Positions 1,926-36,973 of a DNA stretch of 64,000 nucleotides are shown piece by piece. Both the position numbers and the translations under genes were made by a program. How positions within the stretch are numbered: the stretch's first letter is position 1; each line of letters opens with the position of its first letter. The DNA comes from an uncultured Bacteroidales bacterium (GTDB lineage: Bacteria > Bacteroidota > Bacteroidia > Bacteroidales > GCA-2748055): the NCBI GenBank assembly GCA_963792395.1, contig CAWBWE010000006.1:14973-78972 (forward strand). The letters are read 5' to 3'. The notes under the pieces were generated by a model. It was not told the origin of the DNA and made no database searches. It was given only the letters and a program-made list of their open reading frames with translations.

Positions 1926-1953
1926 TTTTGACGCAGAACCCGGCATAAGTAAC
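1926..1953 (-). promoter_or_regulatory. ECF-type promoter GTTACT-N15-GTCAAAA
   Basis: Reverse complement of ttttgac...agtaac, directly upstream of the ATG at 1908; one of 11 matching sites. Confidence 0.7.
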
Positions 1954-1957
1954 ACTT

Positions 1958-2524
1958 TTAGTCATGCATATATTTCTGCGTATATAAATACAATACCCTG
2001 GCCCGGGCTCTTTTCAGCCGCATCTTGGCGGCATCTTCGCTGATCCTTAAGGAATCCCCGATCTGCTTCATGGATAACTCTTCCCTGTATTTCATGAACA
2101 ATAAGGCCTTCTCCTCGGGGTGTATGTCTTCCAGGATCGTGAGCAGCTTTTCATAGTTCACCCCTTCAATCAACTCATCGCTTTCATCAATGATTTCCGG
2201 GATCTCATTTTCCCGGTCCCAGCTGGGGTAGTGCATTTTCTTTTTTTCACGCAAATAGTCAATGCAATGATTGTAGGTGACTGAAAATAACCAGGAGGAG
2301 AAGGAAGAAAGCTGCTTGAAGGAGGAAAGCTTCTCAAACACCTTGGAAAATATGTCTTCCGCCAGTTCTTCCGCTTCCTGCCTGTTCTTTACAAAGCTGT
2401 AGCAGTTGTCCAGCACTTTTGAATAATAACGCGCATAGAGAAGCTCAAAATATTTCGAAGAATCCTCGTTCCGGATTTTATAGATGAGTTCTTCATCTTT
2501 CAGGTGTTCCAGACCTTTTGCCAT
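1958..2524 (-). CDS. ECF sigma-70 factor (ECF-1)
   Basis: Region 2 (AEELAEDIFSKVFEKLSSF...FSSWLFSVTYNHCIDYLR) and region 4 (SMKQIG...KMRLKRAR). Confidence 0.93.
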   Translation of the reverse strand: MAKGLEHLKDEELIYKIRNEDSSKYFELLYARYYSKVLDNCYSFVKNRQEAEELAEDIFSKVFEKLSSFKQLSSFSSWLFSVTYNHCIDYLREKKKMHYPSWDRENEIPEIIDESDELIEGVNYEKLLTILEDIHPEEKALLFMKYREELSMKQIGDSLRISEDAAKMRLKRARARVLYLYTQKYMHD

Positions 2525-2590
2525 GGCTCCGCGTGCTTTGGGAATTAAAGGTAGGTGTATCGCCCCGGAAAAAAAAGTTTCAGTTATTTT

Positions 2591-2618
2591 GTTACCTGAA
2601 CAGCAAGTACCGTCCTAA
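2591..2618 (+). promoter_or_regulatory. ECF-type promoter GTTACC-N15-GTCCTAA
   Basis: Upstream of the lipoprotein/L,D-transpeptidase cluster; same spacing as the other sites. Confidence 0.75.
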
Positions 2619-2656: not shown

Positions 2657-3271
2657 ATGAAAAACAGAATTGTTGCAAGTATTGCATTTTTAGGAATGAC
2701 AGCCCTGATTTTAACTAGCTGTTCAAAAGTGCCCCAGGCTGAGATTGATGCTGCCAACGCTGCCATCGAGCAAGCAAGGTCTGCCGGAGCCGAAGTTTAT
2801 GTTCCTGAGGAGTTTGTAAGTCTGCAGGATTCCATGAACAGCGTTTTGGTAAGTATCGAATCGGAAGGTTCAAAATTTATCAAGACCTACGCGACAGCTA
2901 AAGAAGATCTGGCCAGTGTAACACAATTTGCCGGTGAAGTTCAACAGCAGGCAGAAACTCGCAAAGAGGAACTGAAAATGGAAATTCAGACCATGATTGC
3001 CGAGGTAAAAACGCTGATTGAATCCAACAGGCAACTGATCCTTGAAGCCCCCAGGGGCAAAGAGGGTACCTCCGCTCTTATTGCAATAAAAGGTGAGGTT
3101 GATGCAGTGGAAACTTCCATCAACGAAGCCAGCACTTTATTCGAGGCCGGTGATTATATGATCACCCTTGATAAAGCCAAAGCTGCAAAAGAGAAAGCCA
3201 CAGCGATCAATTCAGAATTGTCTGAAGTTATCGCTAAGTATAAGGCTAACGTACAGAGTAGAAGATCATAG
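2657..3271 (+). CDS. All-helical lipoprotein, DUF4398-like
   Basis: Lipobox LTSC; P.AEIDAANAAIEQARSAGAEVYVPE motif; Ala/Glu-rich helices. Confidence 0.75.
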   Translation: MKNRIVASIAFLGMTALILTSCSKVPQAEIDAANAAIEQARSAGAEVYVPEEFVSLQDSMNSVLVSIESEGSKFIKTYATAKEDLASVTQFAGEVQQQAETRKEELKMEIQTMIAEVKTLIESNRQLILEAPRGKEGTSALIAIKGEVDAVETSINEASTLFEAGDYMITLDKAKAAKEKATAINSELSEVIAKYKANVQSRRS

Positions 3272-3296
3272 ACGGGAAGAGAGATCCGTTAGACTT

Positions 3297-3330
3297 GCCC
3301 CGGTTCCGAGTCCTCGGAGCCGGGGTTTTG
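3297..3330 (+). terminator. Stem-loop / intrinsic terminator after the lipoprotein gene
   Basis: gccccggttccgag-tc-ctcggagccggggt hairpin followed by ttt. Confidence 0.7.
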
Positions 3331-3352
3331 TATATAATCATCCTTAAGGTTT

Positions 3353-4456
3353 ATGAGATCCAGAATTTGGCTCCCGGCATCCCTCCTTACGATGCTGCTC
3401 ACAGGCAGCCTGATCAGAATTTTAAGTAACAAAGCACCGGAAACCGAGGTGACGGAGGCTGGGAAAATGCTGGCAGAGGCTCAACTGGAGCGATCTCCGC
3501 GCTATGCCACCAGGACCTTCCTGCAGGCCGGCACGTATTACGATTCTGCCATGGTGGAGTGGAATACCCAGAATGACCGCTTCATCCTCTTCAGGAACTA
3601 CAATAAAGTGACCGAATTAGCCCGAAAGTCAGTAAATAGCAGCGAAGAAGCCATAAGCATTGCCCGCAGAACGATCTCAGAAACGGAAGATGCGCTTGGG
3701 ATCAGGCTTGAAAAATCAGAGGAAAAGATCCGGAATTTCCATGAGAATTTCAGCCGCTTCCCCATGGATAAGGAGCACCGGGACCGTTTTGCCAGGGGCA
3801 GATTGCTCTATTCAGAAAGCCAGCTTGCCTATAAAAACAAACAGTTCACCCTGTGTATGTCCAGGCTTGATTCCGTGGAAGCAATCACCAACGAGCTTTC
3901 ATCATTTTACCGGGACAGGCTGGAACAATATTTCGAGGAGTACCCCAAATGGGAGGCCGTGCTTGAACAAAGCATCACTTTCTCAAGAAAAAATCAAACC
4001 TTTGTCCTGGTGGTCGATAAAATGGCCAGGGAGCTTATCGTCTATAAAAATGGCAGGATCCTGAAGGAGTATCCTGTTGAACTGGGAGCCAACTGGGTGG
4101 GCGATAAAATGGAGCAGGGCGACAAATCCACCCCGGAAGGCCTGTACCGGATCCTGGATAAGAAGCAGAACGGGCAAACCAGGTATTACAAAGCCTTCCT
4201 GCTGGATTACCCCAATGCGGAAGATAAAAAAAGGTTCTCGCTAAATAAACAGAACGGGACCCTGAATCCGGATGCCCGGATCGGGAACCTCATTGAGATC
4301 CATGGAAGCGGAGGGAAGGGAATTGACTGGACCGACGGCTGTATTGCCTTGCAGGACAGGGATATGGATGAATTATTTGCCTTATGCCCGGTGCTTACCA
4401 GGGTCACTATTGTGGGATCAACAAAATCCTTAAACAGTCTAATATTCGATTTATAA
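3353..4456 (+). CDS. L,D-transpeptidase (YkuD) family protein, YafK/DpaA-like, with helical N-terminal domain
   Basis: K.EQGDKSTPEG.Y, YYKAFLLDYPN, IEIHG...WTDGCIAL with catalytic His/Cys. Confidence 0.88.
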   Translation: MRSRIWLPASLLTMLLTGSLIRILSNKAPETEVTEAGKMLAEAQLERSPRYATRTFLQAGTYYDSAMVEWNTQNDRFILFRNYNKVTELARKSVNSSEEAISIARRTISETEDALGIRLEKSEEKIRNFHENFSRFPMDKEHRDRFARGRLLYSESQLAYKNKQFTLCMSRLDSVEAITNELSSFYRDRLEQYFEEYPKWEAVLEQSITFSRKNQTFVLVVDKMARELIVYKNGRILKEYPVELGANWVGDKMEQGDKSTPEGLYRILDKKQNGQTRYYKAFLLDYPNAEDKKRFSLNKQNGTLNPDARIGNLIEIHGSGGKGIDWTDGCIALQDRDMDELFALCPVLTRVTIVGSTKSLNSLIFDL

Positions 4457-5217
4457 TGAGTCCTATTCGAGCAGATTTCCCCGTGGGAATTATCAGGAAA
4501 TCAGTCCTCAGATTGAAAAAATTTATCCCGAAGGCCGGTGAAAAGATCAGCCAGTGGATCCACAGGGTGCCTGAGCTCCTGAGGAAACATGCTGTTCTGC
4601 TGGCGGGAATGGCCCTGGTTGGGATCCTCCCCCTGCTGCTCAGAGCGGTGGTCTGGATGGTTCCGGTTTCATCACCTGCCCCGGTGCAAGTGGAAGAGCA
4701 GGAACTGGCTTCGCTCCGGCGCAAAATCAGCCAGGAAAATATCCTCCTGGACAGAAAGCTGAATGCCAGAAGGCCCGGATCCTATTACCTGGTCATTAAC
4801 AGCGCTTCCAATGAATTTGTGCTGTACCGGGGAACGGAAATCATCAAAAGGGATAAGTGCTCCACCGGAAGCTACATCCTGCTTAAAAACGGCGAGGAGC
4901 AGCAGTGGATGTTCAAAACCCCGAAAGGGGAATTCAGGATTCTGTATAAGACAGCCTCCCCGGTCTGGAAAAAGCCCGACTGGGCTTTTATAGAAGAGGG
5001 CCTGCCCGTTCCTTCTGCAAACCACCATACACGCTTTGAGTACAGTGTGCTGGGCGACTATGCCCTGAGCATCGGGGACGGATACCTGATCCACGGCACG
5101 CTCTACCAGCGTTTCCTCGGACTGCCCGTCACCCATGGCTGCGTCCGGCTGAATGATGAAAACCTGGAACTGGTATACAGGTCGCTTCAGCTCGGCTCGA
5201 AAGTTTATATTTATTAA
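4456..5217 (+). CDS. L,D-transpeptidase (YkuD), ErfK-like, membrane anchored
   Basis: TPKGEF.I..K...PVW..P, YLIHGT, VTHGCVRL; ATG overlaps the upstream stop (TAATG). Confidence 0.9.
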   Translation: MSPIRADFPVGIIRKSVLRLKKFIPKAGEKISQWIHRVPELLRKHAVLLAGMALVGILPLLLRAVVWMVPVSSPAPVQVEEQELASLRRKISQENILLDRKLNARRPGSYYLVINSASNEFVLYRGTEIIKRDKCSTGSYILLKNGEEQQWMFKTPKGEFRILYKTASPVWKKPDWAFIEEGLPVPSANHHTRFEYSVLGDYALSIGDGYLIHGTLYQRFLGLPVTHGCVRLNDENLELVYRSLQLGSKVYIY

Positions 5218-5226
5218 AAATTCGGA

Positions 5227-6030
5227 ATGCAGCTTAAAGACACGCCTGTAAAAACGGGTTCGAAAATAAAGTGGAAGACGGTCTGGACGATCTTTGCCCT
5301 GGCCGTTCTACTGGCCTTCTTCACCACGATCGCCCTGTCCCCGGTCCATAAATCCAGGGAGTTTCAGGAACTGGTCCAGGCTGATTCTGTGTTCATGGAA
5401 CAGTTTGACAGCAGGTACCATCATCCTGACCTGGACAGCCTGCTCCGGGAGCGGGCTTACAAAGAAGCGCTTTTGAAACTGGCAGAATCTGACTCCATCC
5501 AGCTGGTGGTGAACCTGTCAGACAGCACCGTTCTTCTGAATATTAAGGGAGTGCCCATACATGAGACCAGGATCCGTGAGTTCAGCAGGGATAAATTCCT
5601 GGAGAAGCTTCCCCTGATGCAGGAGATCAAACTCTTTTCCCTCCCCCTGACGGTTCTTTCCCAGTATGCCACCATTGTAAAAGAGCCGGTGGTGGTGCGC
5701 CATGCGCCCAGGGACGAAGAGGAAGCCGCAGAGAATGCCTGGCAACCGGACACCCTGGTGCAAAAGCCGGCTTTTGTGGCTTTTTCGGCTGAATATGGCA
5801 TCCAGATCATCTTCGAGCAGGACCGGGTGGAGAGCTTTCGCGAGCGCTGGAAGAAATTCGGTTTTTACAGCCATCTGCGCACCAGAAAGGCAACAAGTGC
5901 TGTTAAAAACTTCCTCCTGTTCTCCGGGCAGGAATACCAGCCTGCCATCACCATTGAGCTGCCTGTGGATGACCTGCGGGCCATCTACCGGGCCCTGCCG
6001 GACAGTACCCTGATCGTCCTGAAATTATAG
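5227..6030 (+). CDS. Membrane-anchored protein, probably a degenerate YkuD-like fold without catalytic His/Cys
   Basis: LVVNLSDSTV.L.IKG start and IEL..DDLRAIYRALP..T.IV end mirror the adjacent LDT, but there is no HG..C motif. Confidence 0.55.
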   Translation: MQLKDTPVKTGSKIKWKTVWTIFALAVLLAFFTTIALSPVHKSREFQELVQADSVFMEQFDSRYHHPDLDSLLRERAYKEALLKLAESDSIQLVVNLSDSTVLLNIKGVPIHETRIREFSRDKFLEKLPLMQEIKLFSLPLTVLSQYATIVKEPVVVRHAPRDEEEAAENAWQPDTLVQKPAFVAFSAEYGIQIIFEQDRVESFRERWKKFGFYSHLRTRKATSAVKNFLLFSGQEYQPAITIELPVDDLRAIYRALPDSTLIVLKL

Positions 6031-6067: not shown

Positions 6068-6095
6068 GTTACCCTTTGGGCTTTTACCGTCATAA
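6068..6095 (+). promoter_or_regulatory. ECF-type promoter GTTACC-N15-GTCATAA
   Basis: 22 nt upstream of the ATG at 6118. Confidence 0.7.
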
Positions 6096-6117: not shown

Positions 6118-6363
6118 ATGAAAACACAAACAGGCTACCTCAGGAAAATTGGCGGTTTCATTGCCAGAATGAGCACTGCCATCGTCTCCGGGATACCCCG
6201 GGAAAAGGCCGTGTTGAAACCCAGGAACTATACCATCCAGCACAACGGGAAGCCCTATGTTAAACCCGGAAGCGAAAAGTATTATCACCGGCCACCGGGT
6301 AAACCCGTCGTGGAGAAACAGACCCTGCTGAAAGAAAAGAAAAAAGCAAAGGCTGGGGATTAG
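6118..6363 (+). CDS. Small basic hypothetical protein (81 aa)
   Basis: A-rich leader, its own ECF motif, Lys/Arg-rich sequence. Confidence 0.55.
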   Translation: MKTQTGYLRKIGGFIARMSTAIVSGIPREKAVLKPRNYTIQHNGKPYVKPGSEKYYHRPPGKPVVEKQTLLKEKKKAKAGD

Positions 6364-7310
6364 TAATATTCCAATCTTACGGAGATCCTTTCCCAAAAAT
6401 TTGGTGCGTAAACAAAAATATCATCAGAGGTATATGGAATATTATCCTGACCTGCATAGATTTGTATCAAATCGCTTGTGTTAAAGCTCATGGTGCCATG
6501 TATGGTTTTTGTTTCACCTTCGGCAATGGCAGAAACTGAAACTGGTGTATAATTGTTACTTCTTACTATATATCCAGCCTGCCCCATCGGATCGTCGTTT
6601 GTTCTTTGATCTGGTACATCAGTTTTAAAAATGAAAGTGGTATCGGTATTGCCAAAGACATATGAGTGACTGCTAACAGGATAATTCCCCTCGAAACCTG
6701 TCCAGACCGGATTGAAAATTGGAGCAAGAAAATCTTCATGACTTGCTTTTAAAAACCGACCAATTTTCTCTACACCAATGGTTGGTCCATCGAAATTATC
6801 TCCAATACCACCATCAAAATTTAAATATTGCAGGCTGTTTCCATAAAAATCTTCATATGGTTCGGGTAATTCGAGTTCCTGGTAAAAGAATAAACAAATA
6901 GCAATAAAGTATATTAATTCAGCATTCTCACTTACTTCTACCTCATCAGGCTCAAAAATTACAACACTATTATTACTGAAATCTGCCAGACGTAAGGGAT
7001 TCGCTATATCTAAGTTATTGTCAAAAAAATCAATGTTGAGTTCCTCCCCGGCTGCTTGATTTTCATGCCAGTTGGAGAGTCTTAAATGCAAAAATTTTCC
7101 GATAAACCTGCTTGGAGTAATACTAGTTATATAATCACCAAATTGGGTATATTGAACAGTAGAAGTTTTATAGTCTGACTTTAATCCCTGGGTAGATTTC
7201 AGGTTGTCAGACTCTGTATAATAAGTCATGATTAGATCTAGTTTACCTCCTCTTTTCTCACACCCGGCGAAAAGGGTAATTATGGCGATCATTGCTATTA
7301 ATTTGTTCAT
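6360..7310 (-). CDS. Hypothetical lipoprotein (AT-rich gene)
   Basis: Lipobox FAGC; 316-aa ORF. Confidence 0.75.
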   Translation of the reverse strand: MNKLIAMIAIITLFAGCEKRGGKLDLIMTYYTESDNLKSTQGLKSDYKTSTVQYTQFGDYITSITPSRFIGKFLHLRLSNWHENQAAGEELNIDFFDNNLDIANPLRLADFSNNSVVIFEPDEVEVSENAELIYFIAICLFFYQELELPEPYEDFYGNSLQYLNFDGGIGDNFDGPTIGVEKIGRFLKASHEDFLAPIFNPVWTGFEGNYPVSSHSYVFGNTDTTFIFKTDVPDQRTNDDPMGQAGYIVRSNNYTPVSVSAIAEGETKTIHGTMSFNTSDLIQIYAGQDNIPYTSDDIFVYAPNFWERISVRLEYY

Positions 7311-7566
7311 ATTCGTTTTTTAAAATTATTACTAAGAGTGATATACACTGTCCATATCCGTAACTTCACCGATTACTTTCAAACAGCGGATCGCTTCGGC
7401 TTCACAACTCTCATGATTGCCATGGAATCAGGTTCTGCAAATCTCAGCTATAAAAACGAATCTGCAAAGAACTTGCTTACTATTATTGCTCCCCGGGTAA
7501 AAGAAAATATTTCCAGGATTGTATATTTTAAAGTAGTTTATATTATAAACCATATGAGCAAAAAAA

Positions 7567-9176: not shown

Positions 9177-9393
9177 AATTCAAGGGTTTAAAAATAATTG
9201 TTCCTTACCGGCTAAAACCGGACACGACAAGTGCAGGGCTTCCGGAAAGAAAAACCGCTTCATACTGTTTTTCAATTTTGACGGGGAATTCCTTAAAAGT
9301 AACTTCTTGCCTTAAGCCCACCCTCACAATTTCATTAAATCACTTGACTGGCAATTCCTCATTGTTGTAACTTACCCTTACTCAATTCCCGGA

Positions 9394-11360: not shown

Positions 11361-11545
11361 CAGGAAATAGCATTAGTATTTATTTCCCAAAGATACGGTT
11401 CTTTCTGTAATCAGCAGGCGAGGTGCCCTGGTGCAGCAGCTCGCAGGCTTCAAAAGGAGACACTCCGGGCATCTACGCAACCCGGAAAGGGCCCTTTGCA
11501 TCTTCAGGACAAAGAAGTTCTTGTATATTTACCAAGGCCCCTGCC

Positions 11546-14971: not shown

Positions 14972-14999
14972 GTGACCAATGCTTCGAAAAGCGTCACAA
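14972..14999 (+). promoter_or_regulatory. ECF-type promoter GTGACC-N15-GTCACAA
   Basis: 24 nt upstream of the ATG at 15024. Confidence 0.75.
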
Positions 15000-18435: not shown

Positions 18436-18463
18436 GTGACCAAATTATCAGGGCTAGTCAAAA
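18436..18463 (+). promoter_or_regulatory. ECF-type promoter GTGACC-N15-GTCAAAA
   Basis: Upstream of the DUF2934 gene. Confidence 0.78.
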
Positions 18464-19772: not shown

Positions 19773-19800
19773 GTGACCAACTTTGGTTCAGGAGTCCTAA
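19773..19800 (+). promoter_or_regulatory. ECF-type promoter GTGACC-N15-GTCCTAA
   Basis: 18 nt upstream of the DUF502 ATG. Confidence 0.78.
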
Positions 19801-20437: not shown

Positions 20438-21475
20438 ATGGAAGAAAATACACTGATTCTGGTTCTTTTTATTATTGGTATCCTGGGGGTATTGATGTTT
20501 GACCTGCTGGTCGTTGGAAGAAAAAGTCACATCGTATCCCTTAAAGAAGCAGGCCTGTGGACGGGCATTTGGGTATCGCTTGCCCTGGGTTTTGCCCTCT
20601 TTCTGAGGTTTTTTGGAGAACATATTCATGGGATCAGCACCCCGGAGGAGCTGGACCAGGTACTGCTCAGGTATTATCCCTACCTTATAATAGATGCGGA
20701 TAGCTTTGCAGGCAGCCTGGAGATCTTCCGGAAAAGCATAGCCACCAATTATTTAACGGGATACCTGATCGAGGAGTCTCTTTCGGTGGACAATCTTTTT
20801 GTGATGATGGCCATTCTGAGTGCGTTCTCGGTAAATAAACAGGCCTATAAGAAAGTGCTTTTCTGGGGAATCCTGGGAGCTATCGTTTTGCGTTTTGTAT
20901 TTATTTTCGTGGGCGCGGCTCTGATTATCAGGTTTGAATGGTTGCTTTATATCTTTGGCGCCTACCTGATTTATGCAGGGGCCAAAATGTTCCTGAACCG
21001 GAATAAGGAGGTCCGGATCCAACCCCAGGATCATCGCCTGGTGAAATTTCTTTCCAGGAGATTCAAGGTTTTTCCCAGGTATGTTGGCGACCGGTTTTTT
21101 ATCCGGAAAAATGGAATCCTGTATCTGACTCCCCTGTTTATTGTGGTGATGCTCATCGAGGGCTCCGATCTGGTATTCGCGCTGGATTCCATTCCTGCGG
21201 TTTTCGCCATCACCCTGGATCCCTACATCGTCTTCTTCTCCAACGTTTTTGCCATTCTGGGCCTGCGCTCCCTCTTTTTCCTGCTGGTTCATGTGGTGGA
21301 CCGCTTTTACCTTTTGAAGGTGGGAGTGTCCCTCCTGCTCCTGTTTGTGGGGGTGAAACTCATCGCCCATGACTGGTTGCATCACCTGGGATATAAACCG
21401 GTATTCTCCCTCTATATCATCCTGGGGATCCTGGTCCTGAGTATCACGCTATCCATTGTCTTTCCAAAGAAGTGA
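20438..21475 (+). CDS. TerC/Alx family metal-homeostasis membrane protein
   Basis: GYLIEESLSVDNLFV, VLFWGILGAIVLR, DLVFALDSIPA, SNVFAILGLRSL. Confidence 0.92.
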   Translation: MEENTLILVLFIIGILGVLMFDLLVVGRKSHIVSLKEAGLWTGIWVSLALGFALFLRFFGEHIHGISTPEELDQVLLRYYPYLIIDADSFAGSLEIFRKSIATNYLTGYLIEESLSVDNLFVMMAILSAFSVNKQAYKKVLFWGILGAIVLRFVFIFVGAALIIRFEWLLYIFGAYLIYAGAKMFLNRNKEVRIQPQDHRLVKFLSRRFKVFPRYVGDRFFIRKNGILYLTPLFIVVMLIEGSDLVFALDSIPAVFAITLDPYIVFFSNVFAILGLRSLFFLLVHVVDRFYLLKVGVSLLLLFVGVKLIAHDWLHHLGYKPVFSLYIILGILVLSITLSIVFPKK

Positions 21476-21500
21476 CCAAGTCACCGCGCGGCTGTCTAAA
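21472..21500 (+). promoter_or_regulatory. ECF-type promoter GTGACC-N16-GTCTAAA
   Basis: Overlaps the TerC stop, upstream of the USP ATG at 21519; spacer is one base longer than at other sites. Confidence 0.65.
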
Positions 21501-22381: not shown

Positions 22382-22409
22382 GTGACCATTGCAGCTAAGA
22401 GGGTCTAAA
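22382..22409 (+). promoter_or_regulatory. ECF-type promoter GTGACC-N15-GTCTAAA
   Basis: Ends only 5 nt before the ATG at 22415. Confidence 0.78.
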
Positions 22410-27021: not shown

Positions 27022-27081
27022 AAAAAAAATGCCCGGTAAGTTCATACGGGTAATACTTTCCGCATTTCAAACTACCGGGCA
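27022..27081 (-). terminator. Long imperfect hairpin plus T8 tract (intrinsic terminator)
   Basis: tgcccggta...taccgggca arms, followed on the minus strand by eight T. Confidence 0.65.
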
Positions 27082-27100
27082 AAATACAATCTTAAAGCGA

Positions 27101-27819: not shown

Positions 27820-27847
27820 TTTAGACAGGCGAATAAGAAAAAGTCAC
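27820..27847 (-). promoter_or_regulatory. ECF-type promoter GTGACT-N15-GTCTAAA
   Basis: Reverse complement of tttagac...agtcac, upstream of the ATG at 27778. Confidence 0.72.
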
Positions 27848-27896: not shown

Positions 27897-27913
27897 CTAG
27901 GTAAAATACCTAG
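27897..27913. promoter_or_regulatory. Perfect inverted repeat CTAGGTA-AAA-TACCTAG, candidate response-regulator box
   Basis: 7-3-7 palindrome about 105 nt upstream of the ECF-2 gene. Confidence 0.55.
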
Positions 27914-28017: not shown

Positions 28018-28617
28018 ATGAAACAAAGTATAAGTAACAAGATGGAAAGTGTAATGCACTCCGGATTTAGTGATGACCAGTTGATCAGCCAGTTCCTGAA
28101 AGGGGATATGGACTGCTTCGGAGTTTTATACAGCAGATATTATCCCAAAGTTTATGCCAGGTGCTATTCCTTTTCAAGGAATGGGGACGATGCCTTTGAC
28201 ATGACTCAGGAAATACTGCTGAAGGCCATATCCAACCTGGGTTCATTCGGGGGCAACTCCAAATTCTCCACCTGGTTATATTCCATAGCGACCAACTATT
28301 GTATTACGCAGGCCGGTAAGAAAAGCCGCAAATACCATGAAGATGTAAAAGCAGCTTATGAGCTCCTGGATGAGCGGATGGATGAGGAAGATTATAGAGA
28401 AAGGCTGAAATGGGAGGCCCTGGAATCAAATCTGGATGAATACCTCGATTTGCTGCCCGAAGAGGAACGACAGCTACTGGAACTGAAATACCGGAAAAAC
28501 TTCTCGGTGAAAGACCTGCAGAAAGAATTTGACCTCTCTGCCAGTGCAGTAAAAATGCGTTTACACCGGGCAAGGATGAAGGTGAGCCTGCTGATCAGTA
28601 TCGAGGAAGCTGCTTAA
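28018..28617 (+). CDS. ECF sigma-70 factor (ECF-2), paralog of ECF-1
   Basis: LYSRYYPKVY..CYSF, SF.GNSKFSTWLYSIATNYC, SASAVKMRLHRAR. Confidence 0.93.
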   Translation: MKQSISNKMESVMHSGFSDDQLISQFLKGDMDCFGVLYSRYYPKVYARCYSFSRNGDDAFDMTQEILLKAISNLGSFGGNSKFSTWLYSIATNYCITQAGKKSRKYHEDVKAAYELLDERMDEEDYRERLKWEALESNLDEYLDLLPEEERQLLELKYRKNFSVKDLQKEFDLSASAVKMRLHRARMKVSLLISIEEAA

Positions 28618-28623
28618 CCAGAT

Positions 28624-29277
28624 TCAGGCCTCATCCAGAAACCCTTTCTGGATGGCAAATTTTACCAATCCGGCAGTGTTTTTCACGCCGAGTTTCTCCA
28701 GAAGATTTCTCCGGTGCGTATCCACGGTGCGGATACTGATAAACAGCTTGTCTGCGATCTCGGAATTGGAAAATTCCTGAGCGATCAATTTAAGCACCTC
28801 GATTTCTCTGGAGGATATGGGGATCTCAGCACTCTTTTTTCTCGAAGAGGCCGGTTTGTGCAGCTGCTCAATTAATATCGCGGAGACTTCTCTGCTGAAA
28901 TAACTGTCACCTTTGGACACAGATCGAATTGCCGTGAGCACTTCATCCTTTCCGGTATTTTTCAGCAGGAATCCAATGGCCCCCTTCTCCAGCGCCTGGA
29001 TTACAAAATCGTGCAATCCCATCATGGACAATATCAGAACTTTTGTCCCGGGGTGTTTCTGAGAAACCAGCTCCGTGATCTCAATCCCGTTTGGTTTCCC
29101 GATATCAATGTCCAGAACCAGAACATCTACCTCCAGACGGTCCATTTTTTCAATGACTTCAAGTCCGTTGGCAGCTTCATCCACGACCACCATGTCCTTC
29201 TCTTTTTCCAGAATGGACCGGACCCCTTCCCTGAAGATCTTATGATCATCCGCTAACAGAACTCTGATTTTATCCAT
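28624..29277 (-). CDS. NarL/LuxR-family response regulator
   Basis: LADDH, VLVLDI, GFLLK receiver; ISSREIEVLKLIAQ...TVDTHRRNLLEKLG HTH. Confidence 0.95.
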   Translation of the reverse strand: MDKIRVLLADDHKIFREGVRSILEKEKDMVVVDEAANGLEVIEKMDRLEVDVLVLDIDIGKPNGIEITELVSQKHPGTKVLILSMMGLHDFVIQALEKGAIGFLLKNTGKDEVLTAIRSVSKGDSYFSREVSAILIEQLHKPASSRKKSAEIPISSREIEVLKLIAQEFSNSEIADKLFISIRTVDTHRRNLLEKLGVKNTAGLVKFAIQKGFLDEA

Positions 29278-29302
29278 GACCGTTCATTTGTATGATTAGT
29301 GA

Positions 29303-30313
29303 TTAGAGAGGGATCTCAATACTTGCGGTGGTCCCCATTTTTTCGTGCGAATCGAGGATGAAGGCACCGTTTAAGGTCCTGACTCTGGTCTCAATGTTCG
29401 TTAATCCGATTCCAAAATCCTCCAGCCTGTTTTTATTATGTTGGAAGCCCCTGCCATCATCTTCCACCATCAGTACAATGCTTTTATCATGCTTAATTAA
29501 CTGGACCAGTATTTCTGAGGCTGCGGCGTGTTTCACGGAATTGTTTATCAGTTCCTGCCCGCACCGGTAAAGATTAAGCTCCAGATCGTTCTCAAACCTG
29601 ATCTCAGGTCCAATATTGCTATAAAACTCCACTTTGGTCTTAATGGAATTATTCAGCTTGGTAATCAGGTTATTAAAGGCGGAATACATTCCAAATTCCT
29701 CCAGGAGCCTCGGAATTAAATAGTGAGAGAGGTTACGAAGATCATTGGTGATGGAATCCAGAGTCTGACGGATATTCACCAGTTTTTCTTCGTCCATATG
29801 TTGGCTCCGGTTCATAGGATCATCCATAAATGCATCCAGCTCAAGCTTGGAATAGGAGAGTAAGGGCCCGATACCATCGTGGATTTCCATGGCTATTCTT
29901 CTGCGCTCAATTTCCTGTCCAGCGATGATGGATTGAATGGACTCGGTCTCCATCTCTTTCAGCCTGGTAACCTCGTTAATGATACAAATAAAGCCATCCT
30001 GAATGCTGACCCCCTTGACGACAATAAAGCGGTCCTTAAGGTTAAGCACCTCTGTATTGAATGACTTTCTTTTCTTTTCCTGAAAAATACTCAGTTTGTC
30101 AAGCAGGATGGGGATGTGAGTAATGCACTCTGAAAAATTCCGGCCGGTAATTTTTTTGTTCAGCGGGCTTATCTGCAACAATAACTTTGCCAGATGGTTG
30201 GCACGGGTCACACGGCCCGATCCATCCACCGAGATAATTCCAAGGGGTGCAAACTTCATCAGAGAAGCAAGAAAGTCTTCCGCATCAAACGAATTTGATT
30301 GTTCCAATTCCAA
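29303..30313 (-). CDS. Cytoplasmic PAS + HisKA_3 sensor histidine kinase
   Basis: ERRRIAMEIHDGIG H-box, QELINNSVKHA, EDDGRGF, GIGLTNI; no TM segment; TTG start. Confidence 0.92.
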   Translation of the reverse strand: MELEQSNSFDAEDFLASLMKFAPLGIISVDGSGRVTRANHLAKLLLQISPLNKKITGRNFSECITHIPILLDKLSIFQEKKRKSFNTEVLNLKDRFIVVKGVSIQDGFICIINEVTRLKEMETESIQSIIAGQEIERRRIAMEIHDGIGPLLSYSKLELDAFMDDPMNRSQHMDEEKLVNIRQTLDSITNDLRNLSHYLIPRLLEEFGMYSAFNNLITKLNNSIKTKVEFYSNIGPEIRFENDLELNLYRCGQELINNSVKHAAASEILVQLIKHDKSIVLMVEDDGRGFQHNKNRLEDFGIGLTNIETRVRTLNGAFILDSHEKMGTTASIEIPL

Positions 30314-30397: not shown

Positions 30398-30425
30398 GTG
30401 ACCAAGGCTAACTATCGTGTCCCAA
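30398..30425 (+). promoter_or_regulatory. ECF-type promoter GTGACC-N15-GTCCCAA
   Basis: 17 nt upstream of the ATG at 30443; heads the USP-to-epimerase operon. Confidence 0.78.
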
Positions 30426-31387: not shown

Positions 31388-32457
31388 ATAACCTCATAAA
31401 TATGCTCGATGGAGCAAACCCTGAAATTCCCGGTGTATCCAAAGAAACGCTTTTGCTCAGCGATGATGTGGGGAATAGAACACTCTCTCTGAGCGACCGG
31501 ATCGTATCCTTCGAAGATATCATGAATCTGGAGGTGGGAGATACCTCCTTCACCCGGGCCAGAAACCTGGAGCGGGAATCCGGGATCAGGCAGTTATTCC
31601 TGAAATTTGAGGGCAATAATCCCACGGGGACCCAGAAGGACCGCATCGCTTTCAGCCAGTGCCACGATGCCCTGAGAAGGGGATTTGACACCATCACTGT
31701 TGCCTCGTGCGGCAATTACGGAGCCGCCATAGCGCTGGCAGCCAAGCTGGCGGGTCTTGAATGCAGGATCTTTATCCCGGAAAATTATCATACCACCAGA
31801 ATTCAGGAAATGGAGGCCTATGGGGCCCGCGTGGAACGATTCCAGGGAAGCTATGAAGAATCGGTTATTCATTCCATTGAGCAGGCCAGCTCTTCGGAAT
31901 GGTATGATGCCAACCCGGGAGGCGCCAATACCCCCCTGCAGATCATGTCCTATGCTGAAATTGCCAATGAAATATACGATGTGCTGCGTGATGCTCCGAA
32001 AATGGTGGCGGTTCCGGTCTCCAACGGAACCCTTCTCACCGGGGTGTACCGGGGATTTGTAAATCTGTATAAGCGGGGAAAAACCTCCAGGATCCCTAAA
32101 ATGATTGCAGCCTCCTCCACGCATAAGAATCCCATTGTTTTCGCCTATAAGAAAAACCTGGATCGCTGCATTGATCTGACTCCGGAAAGCATCAAGGAAA
32201 CAAAGATAAATGAACCCCTGATAAACTGGCATAGTTTCGATGGAAACGAGGCCCTCTATTCCATCAGGGCATCCCATGGAGCCGCCTATGATATCAGTGA
32301 TGATAAAATGCTTCGCCTTACCAGGATTCTGAAGGAAAAGGAGGGCTTACATGTGCTCCCTGCTTCAACGGCCGGACTGGCAGCCCTGTTTGGGGTTCAT
32401 GCCATGGAAGAGCTGGAAGCAGACAGATATGTGGTCTTACTTACAGGAAAAAAATAA
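31384..32457 (+). CDS. Threonine-synthase-like fold-type II PLP enzyme
   Basis: LKFEGNNPTGTQKDR (PLP Lys), ASCGNYGAA, VPVSNGT, PASTAGLA, LLTG. Confidence 0.88.
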   Translation: MNNLINMLDGANPEIPGVSKETLLLSDDVGNRTLSLSDRIVSFEDIMNLEVGDTSFTRARNLERESGIRQLFLKFEGNNPTGTQKDRIAFSQCHDALRRGFDTITVASCGNYGAAIALAAKLAGLECRIFIPENYHTTRIQEMEAYGARVERFQGSYEESVIHSIEQASSSEWYDANPGGANTPLQIMSYAEIANEIYDVLRDAPKMVAVPVSNGTLLTGVYRGFVNLYKRGKTSRIPKMIAASSTHKNPIVFAYKKNLDRCIDLTPESIKETKINEPLINWHSFDGNEALYSIRASHGAAYDISDDKMLRLTRILKEKEGLHVLPASTAGLAALFGVHAMEELEADRYVVLLTGKK

Positions 32458-32465
32458 GATAGAGA

Positions 32466-33539
32466 ATGCTTACGCAAAAAGAAAACGCGGTCGTGTATTG
32501 CGAGGGTGCGTTCAATACCCCCAATGGCAAAACCGCTCATGGGCTGGTCCGTTTTACAGAACGCTACAAGATATGTTCGGTCATCGACTCCAGGTACCAG
32601 GGTTCTGATTCCGGGATGATCCTGGATGGACGGCCCAATGGCATTCCCGTAGTTCAGAACTTTAATGAAGCACTGATTGCCGCTACAAAAAGCAGGGACA
32701 TGATCAGGTACTTCATTATGGGAATTGCGCCGGATGGAGGAAGGATTCCGGAGAATGCCCTTCTGCCCATTGTCTCAGCCATAAAAGCAAGGATCAGCAT
32801 TGTAAGCGGACTCCATGATTTTCTTACAGAGGATGAAACCCTGGTGGAGCTGGCAAACAGTCATAATTGCGAGCTTCTGGATATCCGGAAACCTCCCAGA
32901 CGGAGTGAGTTGCATTTTTTTTCCGGGAAAATTGAAAAAGTAAGCAGTCCGAAAATAGCCATTCTGGGCACCGATTCGGCTATCGGGAAGCGGACCACTG
33001 CCTGGCTTCTGGTCCATGCGTTCCGGGCGGCGGGAAAAAAGGTTGAAATGATCGGGACCGGTCAGACGGCCTGGCTACAGGGGGCCAGATATTCCATTGT
33101 GCTTGATTCACTGGTCAATGATTTTGTTTCGGGCGAAATAGAGCATGTCATACATACAGCCTGGAAACAGGTAAAACCGGAGTTTATCATCCTGGAGGGC
33201 CAGGGCAGCCTGCTGAATCCAGCCTACCCCGGGGGATATGAGTTGATCGCCGCCGGAAGGCCCGACTTCATCGTACTCCAGCATGCCCCCAGAAGAAAGG
33301 AATATGACGGCTTTCCCGGTTACCCCATCCACGATCTGAAACGACAGCTGGAAGCGGTACAGATCATCTCGGGAAAGGAGGTGGTGGCCATCACCGTGAA
33401 TCACGAAGGAATGGCAAAGGAGGAAATCGTCGGGGAGTGTCAGAAGATCACGGAAGAAACGGGATTACCGGCATTTGATGTCCTGGAATATGGTGCAGAT
33501 GGATTAATGGAAGTGATCTTAACAAAAATAAACAGATAA
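32466..33539 (+). CDS. DUF1611 family protein (DgcN-like D-amino-acid N-acetyltransferase family)
   Basis: GKTAHGLVR, GIAPDGG, GLHDFL, GTDSAIGKRTT, TGQT, EGQGSL. Confidence 0.88.
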   Translation: MLTQKENAVVYCEGAFNTPNGKTAHGLVRFTERYKICSVIDSRYQGSDSGMILDGRPNGIPVVQNFNEALIAATKSRDMIRYFIMGIAPDGGRIPENALLPIVSAIKARISIVSGLHDFLTEDETLVELANSHNCELLDIRKPPRRSELHFFSGKIEKVSSPKIAILGTDSAIGKRTTAWLLVHAFRAAGKKVEMIGTGQTAWLQGARYSIVLDSLVNDFVSGEIEHVIHTAWKQVKPEFIILEGQGSLLNPAYPGGYELIAAGRPDFIVLQHAPRRKEYDGFPGYPIHDLKRQLEAVQIISGKEVVAITVNHEGMAKEEIVGECQKITEETGLPAFDVLEYGADGLMEVILTKINR

Positions 33540-35859
33540 TGTCGGAGGGAATTCGCTCTTTAGTATTTTTTGACAGGCTGAGCGTCAGCGAAATCGTCGT
33601 GGAGCCAAAACGGGTAAAAGCCAGAATTAGCCTGGCACTGAAATCCGGCGGGGAGGTTCACAATGAATTGATCTATTCCTATTCCGAACAGGTATTTGAG
33701 CAGAAAGCTTCTTCCTTTAATCTGGCGTCCATGATGGTCAGTCAGCTGGCCATAAACTATGGCCTGTTCTGTGAGGAAATGATCTTTGACGGCTTATTCG
33801 ATGATACGGACAAACGGTTTATCCTGGATGCACTTGAAAACACCTCCAGGGAAATTTATGTGAACAAATTTCTTGCAAAGAACGTGTTTCTGGTGGCTCC
33901 CTATGACCAGCTCTCCCTGGAAAAACAGAAGCGTTATACCGCGGCCAGGGTCAGTTTTCTGAATACCCGCTTTCCGGTGGAGGAAATGCACTGGGAACAC
34001 AGCGATACCCTGAGCAACAGCTACCTGGTTATGAGCAGCGGAGGAAAGGACAGCCTCCTGAGTTACGGATTACTGAAGGAACTGGGCCATGAGGTCCACC
34101 CCGTGTTCATCAATGAATCGGGCCGCCACTGGTACACGGCCACCAACGCCTTTACCTACCTGAGCGAAAACGAAGCAAATACGGCCAAGGTCTGGTCCAA
34201 CAGCGACCGCATTTTTAACTGGGTAATCCGCCAGATGCCCTGTATCCGGAAGGACTATAAATCGGTTCGCGCCGATATTTACCCCATCCGCCTGTGGACC
34301 GTGGCGGTCTTCCTGTTTGGCATTCTTCCCCTGGCTCAAAAAAGAAAGATCCGGAACATTGTCATCGGGAACGAATATGACACCACGATGAAGACCAACT
34401 TCAAGGGCATCACCCATTATGATTCCCTCTTCGATCAGAGCAAGTACTTTGACAATGCCCTGGCCCGCTACTATACAAAAAAAGGCTGGAGCCAGTTCCA
34501 GTTCTCCCTCTTAAGGAGCCTGTCCGAGTTACTGATCCAAAAGATCCTGGTGAAAAGATATCCCCATCTTCAGGCGCACCAGATCTCCTGTCATGCAGCG
34601 CATATAAAGGACAAACGGGCCTATCCCTGCGGGAAATGTGAGAAATGCAGGAGAATCGTAGCCATGCTGAAGGCCCTGGACGAAGATCCCGCGCATTGTG
34701 GTTATACCCAGGAACAGATGGATCATGCCCTTAAAACCATCACAGCCAAGGGAGTGAAGCAAATTGGTTCAGATGCCGCCCATCTCTTTCATCTCTTGCT
34801 TGAAAAGGAGCTTATTCAGAAAGATTCCCTCTCTGCAGGTCAGGCCGCGAATAATCCCGAGATCCTGAAGCTGAGGTTTGACAATGAAAGAAGCAGCCTG
34901 AATGATATGCCCCTGAAGCTTTATAAAGAGCTGCTTGGAATCTATCTCACCTATGCGGATGGTGCCGTTCAGAAACAGAAGAGGAAGTGGATAGAGTTTA
35001 ATGCCCTGGATGAGCTGGATCATTCTACCGCTTATCCCTTCGAACTGGGCAGCGGACATCTCAAGGGATATAACTCCAAATCGGAGTATCACTGGGCGAC
35101 CTTTACCTGGAAAGAAATTGAGAAAAAGCTGGAACAGGTGGATACCGCCATCCTGCCCTGCGGGTCCATTGAGCAGCACGGGCCTCACCTGCCGGTGGAT
35201 GTAGATTATTTCGACAGCGTATACCTGGCCGATAAGGTGGCCGAGGCCTGCAGTACCCCGAAACCCTTCGTTCTCCCCCCCTGCCCTATGGGGTGGCCTA
35301 CCATCACGAAGATTTCAAGGGAACCATCAGCATCTCCAACCATACCCTGTCGGCCCTGGTATTTGATATCGGGAAAAGCCTGGCTCACAATGGAATCAAA
35401 AAACTGATCATCCTGAATGGCCATGGAGACAATGCCCCCACGCTTTTGTATGCTGCCCAGATGATTAACAGGGAAACGGGAATATTTGTCTGTGTCGAAA
35501 CGGGAGAAACCAGTGATATGGATCTGTATGAACTGGTGGATACTCCAAATGATATCCATGCCGGGGAAATAGAAACAAGTACCTGCCTGGCCATACGTCC
35601 GGAGCTGGTTAAAATGGAGCTGGCGGTAAATGAGACCATGAACTTCGGCAGTTCCTATCTGGACTATACCTCTGAAAGAGGGGTGGCCTGGTATGTCCGG
35701 ACCAAGATCATTTCAGAATCCGGGGTGATGGGCAATCCCACCCTGGCTACCAGGGAGAAAGGCAAAAAACTATGGGAGATCATGATTGCGCATCTGGTCC
35801 GCTTTGTGGAAGAGGTCAAGAAAAGCAAACTGGAGGATCTCTACCAGCGCAAATACTAA
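33539..35859 (+). CDS. Fusion of a PP-loop adenine-nucleotide alpha-hydrolase domain (QueC/MurL-like) and a creatininase-family amidohydrolase; one-base frameshift in a C run at 35275-35281
   Basis: SSGGKDS and SC..CGKCEKC, then GSIEQHGPHLP, NGHGDN, HAGEIETS; adding one C gives LPPLPYGVAYHH and a single 773-aa ORF. Confidence 0.82.
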
Positions 35860-35866
35860 GAGAACC

Positions 35867-36949
35867 ATGAAAATAAAAGGAACGCTCTGTCAGGTCCGGA
35901 AGATGAAGCTGACAGAACCCTATTCTATTGCCTATGAATCCATAGATACCTGTGAAGGCGTTTTTATTCGTATCCACACTGAAACGGGTAACACCGGGCT
36001 TGGGTTTGCTGCTCCGGATCCGGAGGTGACGGGGGAGACTGCTGCGGAAGTCCTGGAATGCTTCCATTCCACCATGGAACCCTTGCTGAAAGGAAACGAT
36101 GTGTTTGCCTACGCCAGGATCATGGAATCTCTGAAGGAGAGTCTTCCCAAAAACCCCTCTGCCCGGGCCCTGGTGGACCTGGCCCTGTACGATCTGCTTG
36201 GACAGAAAGCAGGGCTTCCCCTTTACAAACTCCTGGGAGGGTTTCGAACGAAGATGGCCACCAGTATAACCATTGGTATTATGCCGCTGGAAAGGACCCT
36301 GGAACTTGCCGGGGAACATCTCAAAAAGGGGTTCAGAATCCTGAAGATCAAAGGGGGTATAAATTTGGACGAAGACATTGAGCGGATCATCCGGGTAAGA
36401 GAACTGGCCGGGCCTGAGATCAGGATCCGCTTTGATGCCAACCAGGGATATAGCCTGGAGGATTCCGTTCGCTTCGTAAAAGAAACCGAAGATTCTGACG
36501 TGGAATTGCTGGAACAGCCCACCCATAAAAATGACCTGGAGCTTCTTAAGAAAGTGACCCTGAAATCCTCCATTCCGGTGATGGCCGATGAAAGTCTGCT
36601 GTCCCTTTCGGATGTATTTCAGCTCTCGAAACATGGAAGCTCCGATCTGATCAACATTAAACTGATGAAGACCGGAGGCATCATGGAGGCCATGCATATT
36701 AACTCCGTGGCCCGGGCAGCAGGCATCAAGGCCATGGTGGGATGTATGGATGAATCGGCCCTGGGGATTTCTGCCGCCCTGCATTTTGCCCTCAGCAGGC
36801 CCAATGTGGAGTATGCCGACCTGGACGGGCACCTGGATGTGGAGGAAGATCCCTTCGGCGGCTTGCTCCAGATCAGGGATGGATTTATCCTGCCCCCGGA
36901 GGCCCCCGGACTGGGTTGGATTGGCAGGAAAGCGGATCCTTTTGAGTGA
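35867..36949 (+). CDS. Dipeptide epimerase (L-Ala-D/L-Glu epimerase / DgcA-like, enolase superfamily)
   Basis: KIKG, DANQG, EQP, ADES, NIKLMKTGG, GCM.ES, DLD. Confidence 0.9.
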   Translation: MKIKGTLCQVRKMKLTEPYSIAYESIDTCEGVFIRIHTETGNTGLGFAAPDPEVTGETAAEVLECFHSTMEPLLKGNDVFAYARIMESLKESLPKNPSARALVDLALYDLLGQKAGLPLYKLLGGFRTKMATSITIGIMPLERTLELAGEHLKKGFRILKIKGGINLDEDIERIIRVRELAGPEIRIRFDANQGYSLEDSVRFVKETEDSDVELLEQPTHKNDLELLKKVTLKSSIPVMADESLLSLSDVFQLSKHGSSDLINIKLMKTGGIMEAMHINSVARAAGIKAMVGCMDESALGISAALHFALSRPNVEYADLDGHLDVEEDPFGGLLQIRDGFILPPEAPGLGWIGRKADPFE

Positions 36950-36973
36950 CCACTGATGAAAACGCGGTCTAAT
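36946..36973 (+). promoter_or_regulatory. ECF-type promoter GTGACC-N15-GTCTAAT
   Basis: Overlaps the epimerase stop, upstream of the ATG at 37000. Confidence 0.72.

Follow-up and report, generated by a model that had tools for sequence, protein, structure and literature searches.

Introduction

To our knowledge, very few extracytoplasmic function (ECF) sigma factors of the Bacteroidota have a known promoter, regulon or signal. With an average of 22.5, the number of ECF sigma factors per genome is highest in this phylum (Casas-Pastor et al. 2021, PMC7826278). Here we describe two of them, ECF-1 and ECF-2, together with the short bipartite motif GTKACY-N15-GTC that precedes genes around them, in a 64-kb stretch of DNA (the window; contig CAWBWE010000006.1 of assembly GCA_963792395.1) from an uncultured Bacteroidales bacterium of the GTDB lineage GCA-2748055. 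An earlier analysis made from the letters of the window alone (the sequence-only reading) had listed eleven copies of the motif and proposed that both sigma factors drive one regulon of stress genes. Comparison with other genomes makes it likely that the motif is the promoter read by ECF (group 4) sigma factors of one Bacteroidota lineage, and that it is divided between two separable sigma/promoter modules.

In Bacillus subtilis, promoters of the SigW/SigX/SigM type follow the consensus TGnAAC-N16/17-CGTn. Transcription of a sigma gene from its own cognate promoter is a classic ECF signature. The two sigma factors described here resemble this type in having regions 2 and 4 only, and SigW is the closest solved relative of ECF-2 (5wuq, E 4.9e-21). 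The promoters are likewise bipartite, with an AC-containing -35 element, a CGTC-like -10 element, fixed spacing, and envelope or stress genes as targets. They differ in the -35 box, which is GTGACC or GTTACy and not GAAAC/GGAAC, and in a spacer that is 1-2 nucleotides (nt) shorter. Furthermore, neither sigma factor is autoregulated, and no gene for a membrane-bound class I anti-sigma factor is adjacent.

SigX of Pseudomonas aeruginosa, with CfrX, CmpX, and OprF, belongs to group ECF102 (Casas-Pastor et al. 2021, PMC7826278). Linkage of the sigma gene to MscS-type genes is shared with our locus, in which the gene of a 225-amino-acid (aa) MscS-like protein, MscS225, is divergent from ECF-2. However, the phylum is another one, and in the ECF-2 clade the small protein is missing and its place is taken by a two-component system.

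ECF sigma factors under two-component control are described for Streptomyces (sigma-E/CseBC, ECF39) and Porphyromonas gingivalis (SigP/PorXY, ECF228) (PMC7826278, PMC4800418). The groups that the main text of Casas-Pastor et al. connects with two-component systems are ECF15, 246, 32, 234, and 39, and no Bacteroidetes group is named there as one of these (PMC7826278). ECF-2 resembles this mode in that no anti-sigma gene lies beside it, while a kinase and a regulator gene are conserved nearby in 12/12 loci; an operator-like palindrome stands in place of the autoregulatory promoter. In contrast to sigma-E/CseBC and SigP/PorXY, the kinase is a soluble HisKA_3 protein with a PAS-like N-terminus, the regulator is of the GerE/NarL type, and its control of ECF-2 is putative.

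The fold of a 134-aa protein encoded next to ECF-1 is shared with the periplasmic DUF2874/PepSY-like/BLIP-like proteins of Bacteroides (PF11396; PMC2954215). Unlike these, the 134-aa protein is cytoplasmic and carries an additional helix at its N-terminus with predicted contacts to the sigma factor, and its gene is in each case the next one after an ECF sigma gene, with the promoter of that sigma in front.

Paralogous sigma factors within one genome are also found in the EcfG system of the alphaproteobacterial general stress response (PMC7083833), which, like our locus, pairs ECF sigma factors with a multi-gene stress regulon. In comparison to EcfG/NepR/PhyR, the regulator found here has a GerE and not a sigma-like output domain, the promoter boxes differ, and the phylum is unrelated. 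Of the genes annotated between 1 and 40 kb, none was NepR-like or PhyR-like, which sets the locus apart from EcfG systems.

The kind of system is known, and its wiring is new: the sigma factors are not autoregulated, ECF-1 has a DUF2874-like partner, and ECF-2 is apparently under a two-component system. As the sequence-only reading had supposed, literature searches, which took in the main text of Casas-Pastor et al. 2021, found no description of the regulon or the motif in this phylum; a group-level prediction of the motif may already be given in the supplements of that paper.

Distribution of the motif in the window and the genome

The genome under study (G000; G-numbers denote genomes, L-numbers homologous loci) is a bin of 4.19 Mb in 31 contigs and is 67.5% complete. 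The comparison set held 90 other genomes of the family, which cover 14 genera and include 48 genomes of the same genus. Gene families were assigned through Pfam and NCBIfam profile scans, and the housekeeping promoter box TAnnTTTG was sought within 150 nt before genes. The two sigma genes and the promoter sites in the window are as follows.

1958..2524, minus strand: ECF-1 sigma factor gene, 188 aa; Sigma70_r2 and Sigma70_r4_2; TIGR02937 at 89.9 bits (cut-off 42.9)
28018..28617, plus strand: ECF-2 sigma factor gene, 199 aa; Sigma70_r2 and Sigma70_r4_2; TIGR02937 at 95.0 bits (cut-off 42.9)
1930..1953, minus strand: ECF-1-type promoter GTTACT-N14-CGTC, with the ECF-1 stop codon 4 nt upstream and the 134-aa gene 21 nt downstream
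2591..2614, plus strand: ECF-1-type promoter GTTACC-N14-CGTC, divergent from ECF-1, before the lipoprotein gene
6068..6091, plus strand: ECF-1-type promoter before the 81-aa gene (6118-6363)
9280..9303, minus strand: ECF-1-type promoter 103 nt before the 206-aa gene (8556-9176)
14972..14995, plus strand: ECF-2-type promoter before the gene of a 267-aa Phenol_MetA_deg outer-membrane protein (15024-15827)
18436..18459, plus strand: ECF-2-type promoter before the 78-aa lysine-rich DUF2934-like gene (18485-18721)
19773..19796, plus strand: ECF-2-type promoter before DUF502-TerC (19819-21475)
21472..21496, plus strand: ECF-2-type promoter with a 16-nt spacer, before the tandem universal stress protein (USP) gene (21519-22379)
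22382..22405, plus strand: ECF-2-type promoter 9 nt before the FGase-MATCAP-GSH-S/ATP-grasp operon (22415-26155)
27824..27847, minus strand: ECF-2-type promoter before MscS225-MscS278 (26161-27778), divergent from ECF-2
30398..30421, plus strand: ECF-2-type promoter before the USP-PALP-DUF1611-creatininase-like-MR_MLE genes (30443-36949)
36946..36969, plus strand: ECF-2-type promoter before MscS273, an MgtE_N/CBS protein, and MgtE (37000-39969)

Both sigma genes claimed by the sequence-only reading are present, and its eleven sites were recovered at the positions and on the strands it had given. Nine of its ten N15 sites end in nnAA, as it had noted, and the tenth, at 36946, ends in TAAT; the site at 9280..9303 was missing from its list. 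The proteins consist of regions 2 and 4 only, as in ECF group 4 sigma factors. No named NCBIfam subfamily reached its cut-off for either of them, and a term search of Rhodius et al. 2013 (main text, PMC3817407) yielded nothing on an ECF group assignment.

GTKACY-N15-GTC has 12 matches in the window against 0.73 expected from 100 dinucleotide-preserving shuffles of the window (standard deviation 0.81, maximum 3); none of the shuffles reached 12. The 12 matches comprise the ten from the earlier list, the additional intergenic one at 9280-9303 on the minus strand, and one at 59276, which lies inside an open reading frame (ORF) and is probably due to chance. The N16 site at 21472 is a real site in addition to these. 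Matches at 3608, 23762, 59276, and 62354, which are intragenic or have the wrong spacer, were treated as background. A point raised by the sequence-only reading was how often the motif occurs inside genes or on the wrong strand: 11 of the 12 N15 matches lie within the non-coding 9.6% of the first 40 kb, and all 11 are oriented toward the adjacent gene. Its placement of the sites on the coding strand, just before start codons, was borne out as well, with 9-45 nt between GTC and ATG and 103 nt for the additional site.

In the whole bin, with crude gene calls, the N15 pattern has 82 matches, 13 of which are intergenic and within 150 nt before a gene on the same strand. For the control spacers N12-14 and N16-18 there are 36-68 matches each, only 0-2 of them intergenic and co-oriented. 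A weight matrix trained solely on 41 sites of other genomes placed eight window sites among the 15 best matches in the genome, the best of all being the site at 27824..27847 with 30.8 bits. Thirteen of these 15 matches were marked as intergenic, and the remaining two, a pair on contig C14, proved to be intergenic too. This recovery of window sites with a matrix made from foreign sites answers the worry of the sequence-only reading that its motif was defined post hoc.

The motif has the makeup of an ECF-type promoter: it is bipartite, with -35 and -10 boxes at a fixed spacing, and stands shortly before the target genes in their own orientation. The -35 element would be tGT(G/T)ACy and the -10 element (C)GTCtaAA, 15 nt apart and once 16 nt apart; transcription would start a few nt past the -10 box, which would leave very short leaders or none. 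The spacers and flanks of the sites are mutually unrelated, and the sites are therefore not copies of a repeat.

Conservation of the motif across genomes

Orthologues of ECF-1 are present in 24 of the 90 family genomes and in 9 of the 14 genera, and orthologues of ECF-2 in ten of the 90, nine of them among the 48 genomes of the same genus. In G021 and G028, whose ECF-2 proteins are 73% and 71% identical to that of G000, the island is present and partly rearranged. The boxes GTGACy-N15-GTCtaAA are kept before most orthologous genes in these two genomes while the spacer sequences diverge. The exceptions are the DUF502 gene of G021, which has no strict site in front, and the genes for which G028 lacks an orthologue.

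Each gene family keeps its own distance between site and ATG. The tandem-USP gene keeps the N16 spacer in all four genomes (G000, G026, G021, and G028), with 21-22 nt to the ATG. The site of the FGase operon lies 8-9 nt before the ATG in G026, G021, G028, L054, and L055, and that of the USP orthologue 20-21 nt before it in G026, G021, G028, L054, L055, L057, L058, and L059. The MscS225 site is kept in G026, G021, G072, G073, and G080, the MscS273 site in G026, G021, G028, and L055, and the DUF502-TerC site in G026. A small gene comparable to the 78-aa DUF2934-like gene has a site in G021 and L054. A counterpart of the site at 14972 was seen outside this genome only in G026. Among the ECF-1-type sites, the one at 9280..9303 is also present in G026, and the orthologous 81-aa gene of G080 likewise has a GTTACC...CGTC site.

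In all five genomes with ECF-2 that were counted, strict matches concentrate on the contig that carries the gene, mostly within ~20 kb of it: 4/4 in G021, 6/8 in G028, 5/6 in G073, 7/11 in G080, and 6/9 in G072. Twenty relatives without an ECF-2 orthologue had no excess of the motif over a reversed-pattern control. This set had suggested that the motif is not conserved, a suggestion that was dismissed since the genomes lack ECF-2; G010, the sole carrier of ECF-1 among them, has a site adjoining it.

Public relatives with a name comprise metagenome-assembled genomes (MAGs) of uncultured Bacteroidales/Bacteroidetes and a Saccharicrinis MAG. Homologues that are 33-43% identical occur in Cytophagales, Saprospiraceae, and Chitinophagales, including the cultured Spirosoma, Runella, Dyadobacter, Fibrisoma, Emticicia, and Larkinella. 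Loci whose sigma factor is at least 41% identical have one to nine sites each, with a single site in the shortest locus, L057. In 37 of the 68 distant loci (33-43% identical), the motif is found no more than 260 nt before the sigma gene itself, as compared to one of the 12 loci of the ECF-2 clade. Its position before the sigma gene in the distant loci is independent evidence that this sigma lineage reads the motif.

The statistics, the conservation before orthologues, whose presence in related genomes the sequence-only reading had proposed to check, and the clustering around a sigma gene all fit its view of the motif as an ECF-type promoter.

Two Cytophagales loci (L098:9280-12664 and L067:9998-12550) have, in a row, the motif, a sigma gene, and genes for a 64-71-aa protein, a 275-aa protein like MscS273, and an outer-membrane barrel. 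This distant Bacteroidota operon recalls SigX/CfrX/CmpX/OprF by gene neighbourhood only. The Fibrisoma locus, L098, has two tandem paralogous sigma genes.

Two modules or one regulon

The sites in the window fall into two types. The four sites between 1.9 and 9.3 kb all read GTTACy and have a C before GTC, whereas the eight sites between 15 and 37 kb all read GTGACy and have a variable base before GTC. A perfect 4/8 sort of the two types around the two sigma genes has a chance of 2 in 495 by our arithmetic. Elsewhere the modules occur apart: ECF-2 is found without ECF-1 in G021, G028, G072, and G073, and ECF-1 without ECF-2 in G010, G025, G027, G029, G075, and others, while G080 has both on different contigs. 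The adjacency of the modules in G000 and G026 is therefore a juxtaposition.

These results bear on the proposal that the two paralogous sigma factors drive one regulon. In that case both would read all ~12 sites, redundantly or in a hierarchy like that of paralogous EcfG sigmas, and the 37 kb would be a single stress island. The motifs do differ at just one -35 base and at the base before GTC, distant ECF-1 orthologues use GTGACy, and the modules are neighbours in two genomes. The region 4.2 helices of both sigmas are also alike (xSxxAxKMRLxRAR), which fits the similar -35 boxes of the two modules. However, the two proteins are only 37% identical, the site types sort without exception around their own sigma gene, and in most genomes the modules are separate, each with its own sites only. 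The single regulon of the sequence-only reading was not upheld, and we consider it improbable. A covariation between D or S at position 164 of ECF-1, in region 4.2, and T or G at the third -35 base was considered and dropped, as L045 and L046 break the pattern.

The motif could also be an operator for a regulator, such as the adjacent GerE-type one, with the housekeeping sigma factor transcribing the genes. A response regulator gene does always adjoin ECF-2, and the promoter role of the motif is deduced from sequence. The motif is, however, asymmetric and strand-specific, with a fixed spacer, and at 9-45 nt from the start it leaves no room for a separate promoter. No housekeeping box accompanies it: TAnnTTTG is present within 150 nt before none of 12 member genes, as compared to five non-members (globin, p195, p229, pfkB, and p310). 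The sequence-only reading had named pfkB and the large MscS gene (15824-18337) as non-members with this box; it stands at -41 before pfkB, and no exact box was found within 150 nt before the MscS gene. In the 37 distant homologues mentioned above, the motif lies directly before the sigma gene with no response regulator nearby, and ECF-1 loci have the motif but no two-component system. A separate palindromic element (see below) would suit a dimeric regulator better. An operator role for the motif is very unlikely on these grounds.

A chance pattern, dispersed repeat or mobile-element remnant without regulatory meaning, for which the post hoc definition and ~50 background matches inside genes genome-wide could be cited, is effectively refuted already by the shuffles, the unrelated spacers and flanks, and the conservation of the boxes alone before orthologues across species.

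The ECF-1 module

Two further features belong to the module of ECF-1.

2657..6030, plus strand: operon of a 204-aa coiled-coil lipoprotein, two YkuD L,D-transpeptidases (LDTs; 367 and 277 aa), and a 267-aa membrane-anchored protein (p267)
1504..1908, minus strand: 134-aa soluble protein, candidate anti-sigma factor of ECF-1

The Pfam domain YkuD was found in both transpeptidases. Among 25 ECF-1 loci, G000 included, 24 have two N15/N16 sites, one before the gene of ~132 aa and one before the 200-aa lipoprotein gene; the former keeps its place between ECF-1 and the partner gene in 24/25. The order p267-LDT-LDT-lipoprotein, site, ECF-1, site, 132-aa gene is the same in 8/8 extended loci from five genera, and the site before the orthologous lipoprotein gene is conserved in all eight.

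On its own strand, ECF-1 has no ECF motif upstream, and it lacks the autoregulation that is classic for ECF systems. The only conserved blocks upstream of ten ECF-1 orthologues are the reverse complement of the divergent promoter and a ATATTTTT box, which resembles the housekeeping -7 element. ECF-1 would probably be transcribed from a housekeeping-type promoter. The protein would drive four GTTACy-N14-CGTC promoters within 7.4 kb, with the lipoprotein/LDT/LDT/p267 operon, the 81-aa gene, the 206-aa gene, and the 134-aa gene as its targets. By its content (a lipoprotein, two L,D-transpeptidases, and small envelope proteins), this set points to remodelling of peptidoglycan cross-links.

Between the 81-aa and the 206-aa target genes, the region 6360-8434 holds the genes of a 316-aa protein, an HTH_34 winged-helix regulator, and a 195-aa membrane protein. 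These are absent from G026, in which the region is otherwise 86-99% identical; the difference is an insertion or deletion in the ECF-1 module. Just upstream of the module are a bacterial-like globin and a cupin gene (573-1427), the globin with TAnnTTTG at -35 and without an ECF site.

A candidate anti-sigma factor for ECF-1

The 134-aa protein is single-copy in the genome, and no second copy of its family that might serve ECF-2 was found in this genome. It matches no Pfam or NCBIfam family, in the case of Pfam not even at E values up to 1. Neither a membrane segment nor a signal peptide is predicted, and the protein is therefore cytoplasmic. An AlphaFold2 model (mean predicted local distance difference test score, pLDDT, 88.9) matches the fold of the DUF2874/BLIP-like structures 3u1w, 4hbr, 4ipb, 4fr9, and 4k61 with query TM-scores of 0.76-0.82, and a profile built on the protein has a weak match to 3u1w (E 1.1e-4). 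Its likeness to PF11396 (PepSY_like/DUF2874) is at the level of the fold and of this weak profile match, below the Pfam threshold. The nearest Atlas clusters are annotated as 'hypothetical protein', and one of them has PF11396 on 12% of its members.

We predicted the complex of ECF-1 with the 134-aa protein in three runs, which scored 0.54, 0.73, and 0.61 (median 0.61) as compared to 0.11 for the best of three controls. Of solved complexes, 58 of 80 came up to the mark of 0.61, and of mismatched pairs 2 of 110; these counts apply only approximately, as we used our own alignments for the prediction. The three runs share at least 75% of their contacts, with a partner pLDDT of at least 82. The predicted contacts involve residues 142-178 of ECF-1, the region 4 helix-turn-helix that reads the -35 box, and the N-terminal helix and the sheet of the 134-aa protein.

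The complex prediction supports binding of ECF-1 by the 134-aa protein. The latter is beta-rich and DUF2874-like, has no membrane segment and matches no family, and in this it differs from the class I anti-sigma (ASDI) factors, which have a helical domain, often zinc-binding (HxxxCxxC), and usually a membrane anchor. Among the structure and profile matches there was no solved complex of a DUF2874-like fold with a sigma factor, and literature searches on DUF2874 with sigma or anti-sigma returned nothing relevant. We infer that the 134-aa protein is a candidate soluble anti-sigma factor of a new fold. It would cover region 4 of ECF-1, and since it would be made under the promoter of ECF-1 itself, negative feedback would result.

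The probable ECF-2 regulon and its putative control

ECF-2 would drive the eight GTGACy promoters over 22 kb around its own gene and about six more elsewhere in the genome. Its island encodes three MscS-like proteins (225, 278, and 273 aa) and two tandem-USP proteins. Most gene families named by the sequence-only reading were retrieved (YkuD, Usp, DUF502/TerC, FGase/MATCAP/GSH-S ATP-grasp, PALP/DUF1611/MR_MLE, MscS-like, and MgtE); the match of the 78-aa protein to DUF2934 is weak, with 17.6 bits against 22.

Outside the window, ECF-2-type sites lie before a second DUF2934 gene, a few genes of unknown function, and a permease/exchanger pair. The second DUF2934 gene is the paralogue of the 78-aa gene (contig C13, position 72395 of G000) and scores 22.0 bits. 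The pair is at C14:49777-49802, where a self-complementary double site separates two divergently oriented genes, one encoding a 1700-aa AA_permease/SLC12-like protein and the other a Na+/H+ exchanger. As GTGAC and GTCAC are reverse complements of one another, a site that ends in GTCAC also reads as a site on the opposite strand, and C14:49777-49802 may be a bidirectional ECF promoter. Self-complementary pairs are also present at L054:4699/4724 and L062:7941/7966. A site before the gene of a secreted PepSY-like protein (C2:16641 of G000) reads GTTACC and has no clear assignment to one sigma factor or the other.

The content of the ECF-2 set (MscS-like proteins, MgtE, TerC/DUF502, USPs, DUF2934, ion transporters, and two small-molecule operons) suggests a response to ionic or osmotic stress, and it fits the theme of a general or osmotic stress response that the sequence-only reading had suggested.

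ECF-2 has no ECF motif before its own gene, so that it too departs from the autoregulated pattern, and no candidate anti-sigma gene was found beside it. The MscS225-like protein and a small protein were considered for an anti-sigma role toward ECF-2, which would be speculative. Two other features adjoin ECF-2.

27898..27912, unstranded: perfect palindrome TAGGTAAAATACCTA, candidate operator upstream of ECF-2, followed by a TTACCT half-site, a AAAATACGCTTTA block, and a TAnnTTTA box
28624..30313, minus strand: two-component system; 336-aa histidine kinase of the HisKA_3 type, without a predicted membrane segment, and 217-aa response regulator of the receiver-GerE type

The palindrome TAGGTAAAATACCTA is invariant in 7/7 orthologous loci, whose proteins are 69-96% identical, and its exact form occurs once in the 4.19-Mb genome. 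All seven orthologues keep the whole upstream arrangement of TAGGTAAAATACCTA, TTACCT half-site, AAAATACGCTTTA block, and TAnnTTTA box close to the start codon. L054, L055, L059, and L064, a Cyclobacteriaceae locus, have the palindrome before their sigma gene as well. The histidine kinase is cytoplasmic, and its N-terminus is PAS-like as judged by eye. In 12/12 loci whose sigma factor is at least 41% identical, the kinase and the regulator gene are both no more than 3.7 kb away from the sigma gene. In the probable chain of control, the kinase would act on the GerE regulator, the regulator on transcription of ECF-2, and ECF-2 on its regulon.

In L065, from a MAG labelled 'bacterium' whose sigma factor is 41% identical, the homologue of the histidine kinase gene is preceded by GTGACT-N15-GTC (L065:7994), one of 9 sites in 20 kb. 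This site would give positive feedback from the sigma factor onto its two-component system.

At 33539-35859, a 622-aa ORF of the USP-PALP-DUF1611-creatininase-like-MR_MLE group ends with only the first 66 positions of the creatininase profile. Its similarity to relatives stops at residue 585, and an overlapping 188-aa ORF (35293-35859) follows; the pair may reflect a frameshift or an assembly error. At 11423-12801, a serpin gene is split into two ORFs, 11423-12004 with profile positions 2-96 and 12163-12801 with positions 189-370; lacking its middle part, it is probably disrupted.

Discussion

We favor two separable modules, each with a sigma factor of one Bacteroidota ECF lineage and promoters of its own type. 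Several points weigh against this reading or narrow it. The dependence of the promoters on a sigma factor is deduced entirely from comparative genomics, a look-up of sequencing runs turned up no RNA run for this sequence, and the motif was defined post hoc, a point that the matrix trained on foreign sites answers. At 53-56% identity, ECF-1 orthologues have GTGACy together with CGTC, so that the T/G split is no absolute marker of the sigma factor, and cross-recognition between ECF-1 and ECF-2 sites is possible in this cell. One ECF-1 locus, L039, has no flanking site. At 67.5% completeness the bin gives an incomplete census of the regulons, and the genome-wide division into coding and intergenic matches comes from a crude in-house gene caller. 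As to control, the anti-sigma role of the 134-aa protein is drawn from one structure prediction, and the regulator is connected to the palindrome by adjacency. Four to six loci of the ECF-2 clade carry a different upstream palindrome, of the CTACGAGAwTCTCGTAG type.

Taking both modules together, we tentatively propose a joint model, to which we give somewhat less than an even chance. In it, the cytoplasmic protein with the DUF2874/BLIP-like fold, which is otherwise known only from periplasmic proteins without an assigned function, would be a new structural class of anti-sigma factor that clamps region 4 of ECF-1. It would be made from an ECF-1-dependent promoter set between the two genes, while the gene of ECF-1 would be constitutive. 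ECF-2 would be the output of the kinase/NarL-GerE pair via the unique palindrome, in an ionic or osmotic circuit specific to the phylum and with most of its targets in the island around the sigma gene.

A comparison of genomes alone yields a promoter consensus and two nearly complete regulons for this lineage of sigma factors. The cassette of ECF-1 and L,D-transpeptidases is likely an envelope-remodelling response in 24 of the 90 family genomes. To this are added a candidate new anti-sigma fold and a candidate cascade in which a two-component system would govern a sigma factor of USP, mechanosensitive-channel, and ion-transport genes. As the sigma lineage and its motif have cultured carriers (Spirosoma, Fibrisoma, Runella, Emticicia, and Larkinella), these predictions can be tested at the bench.

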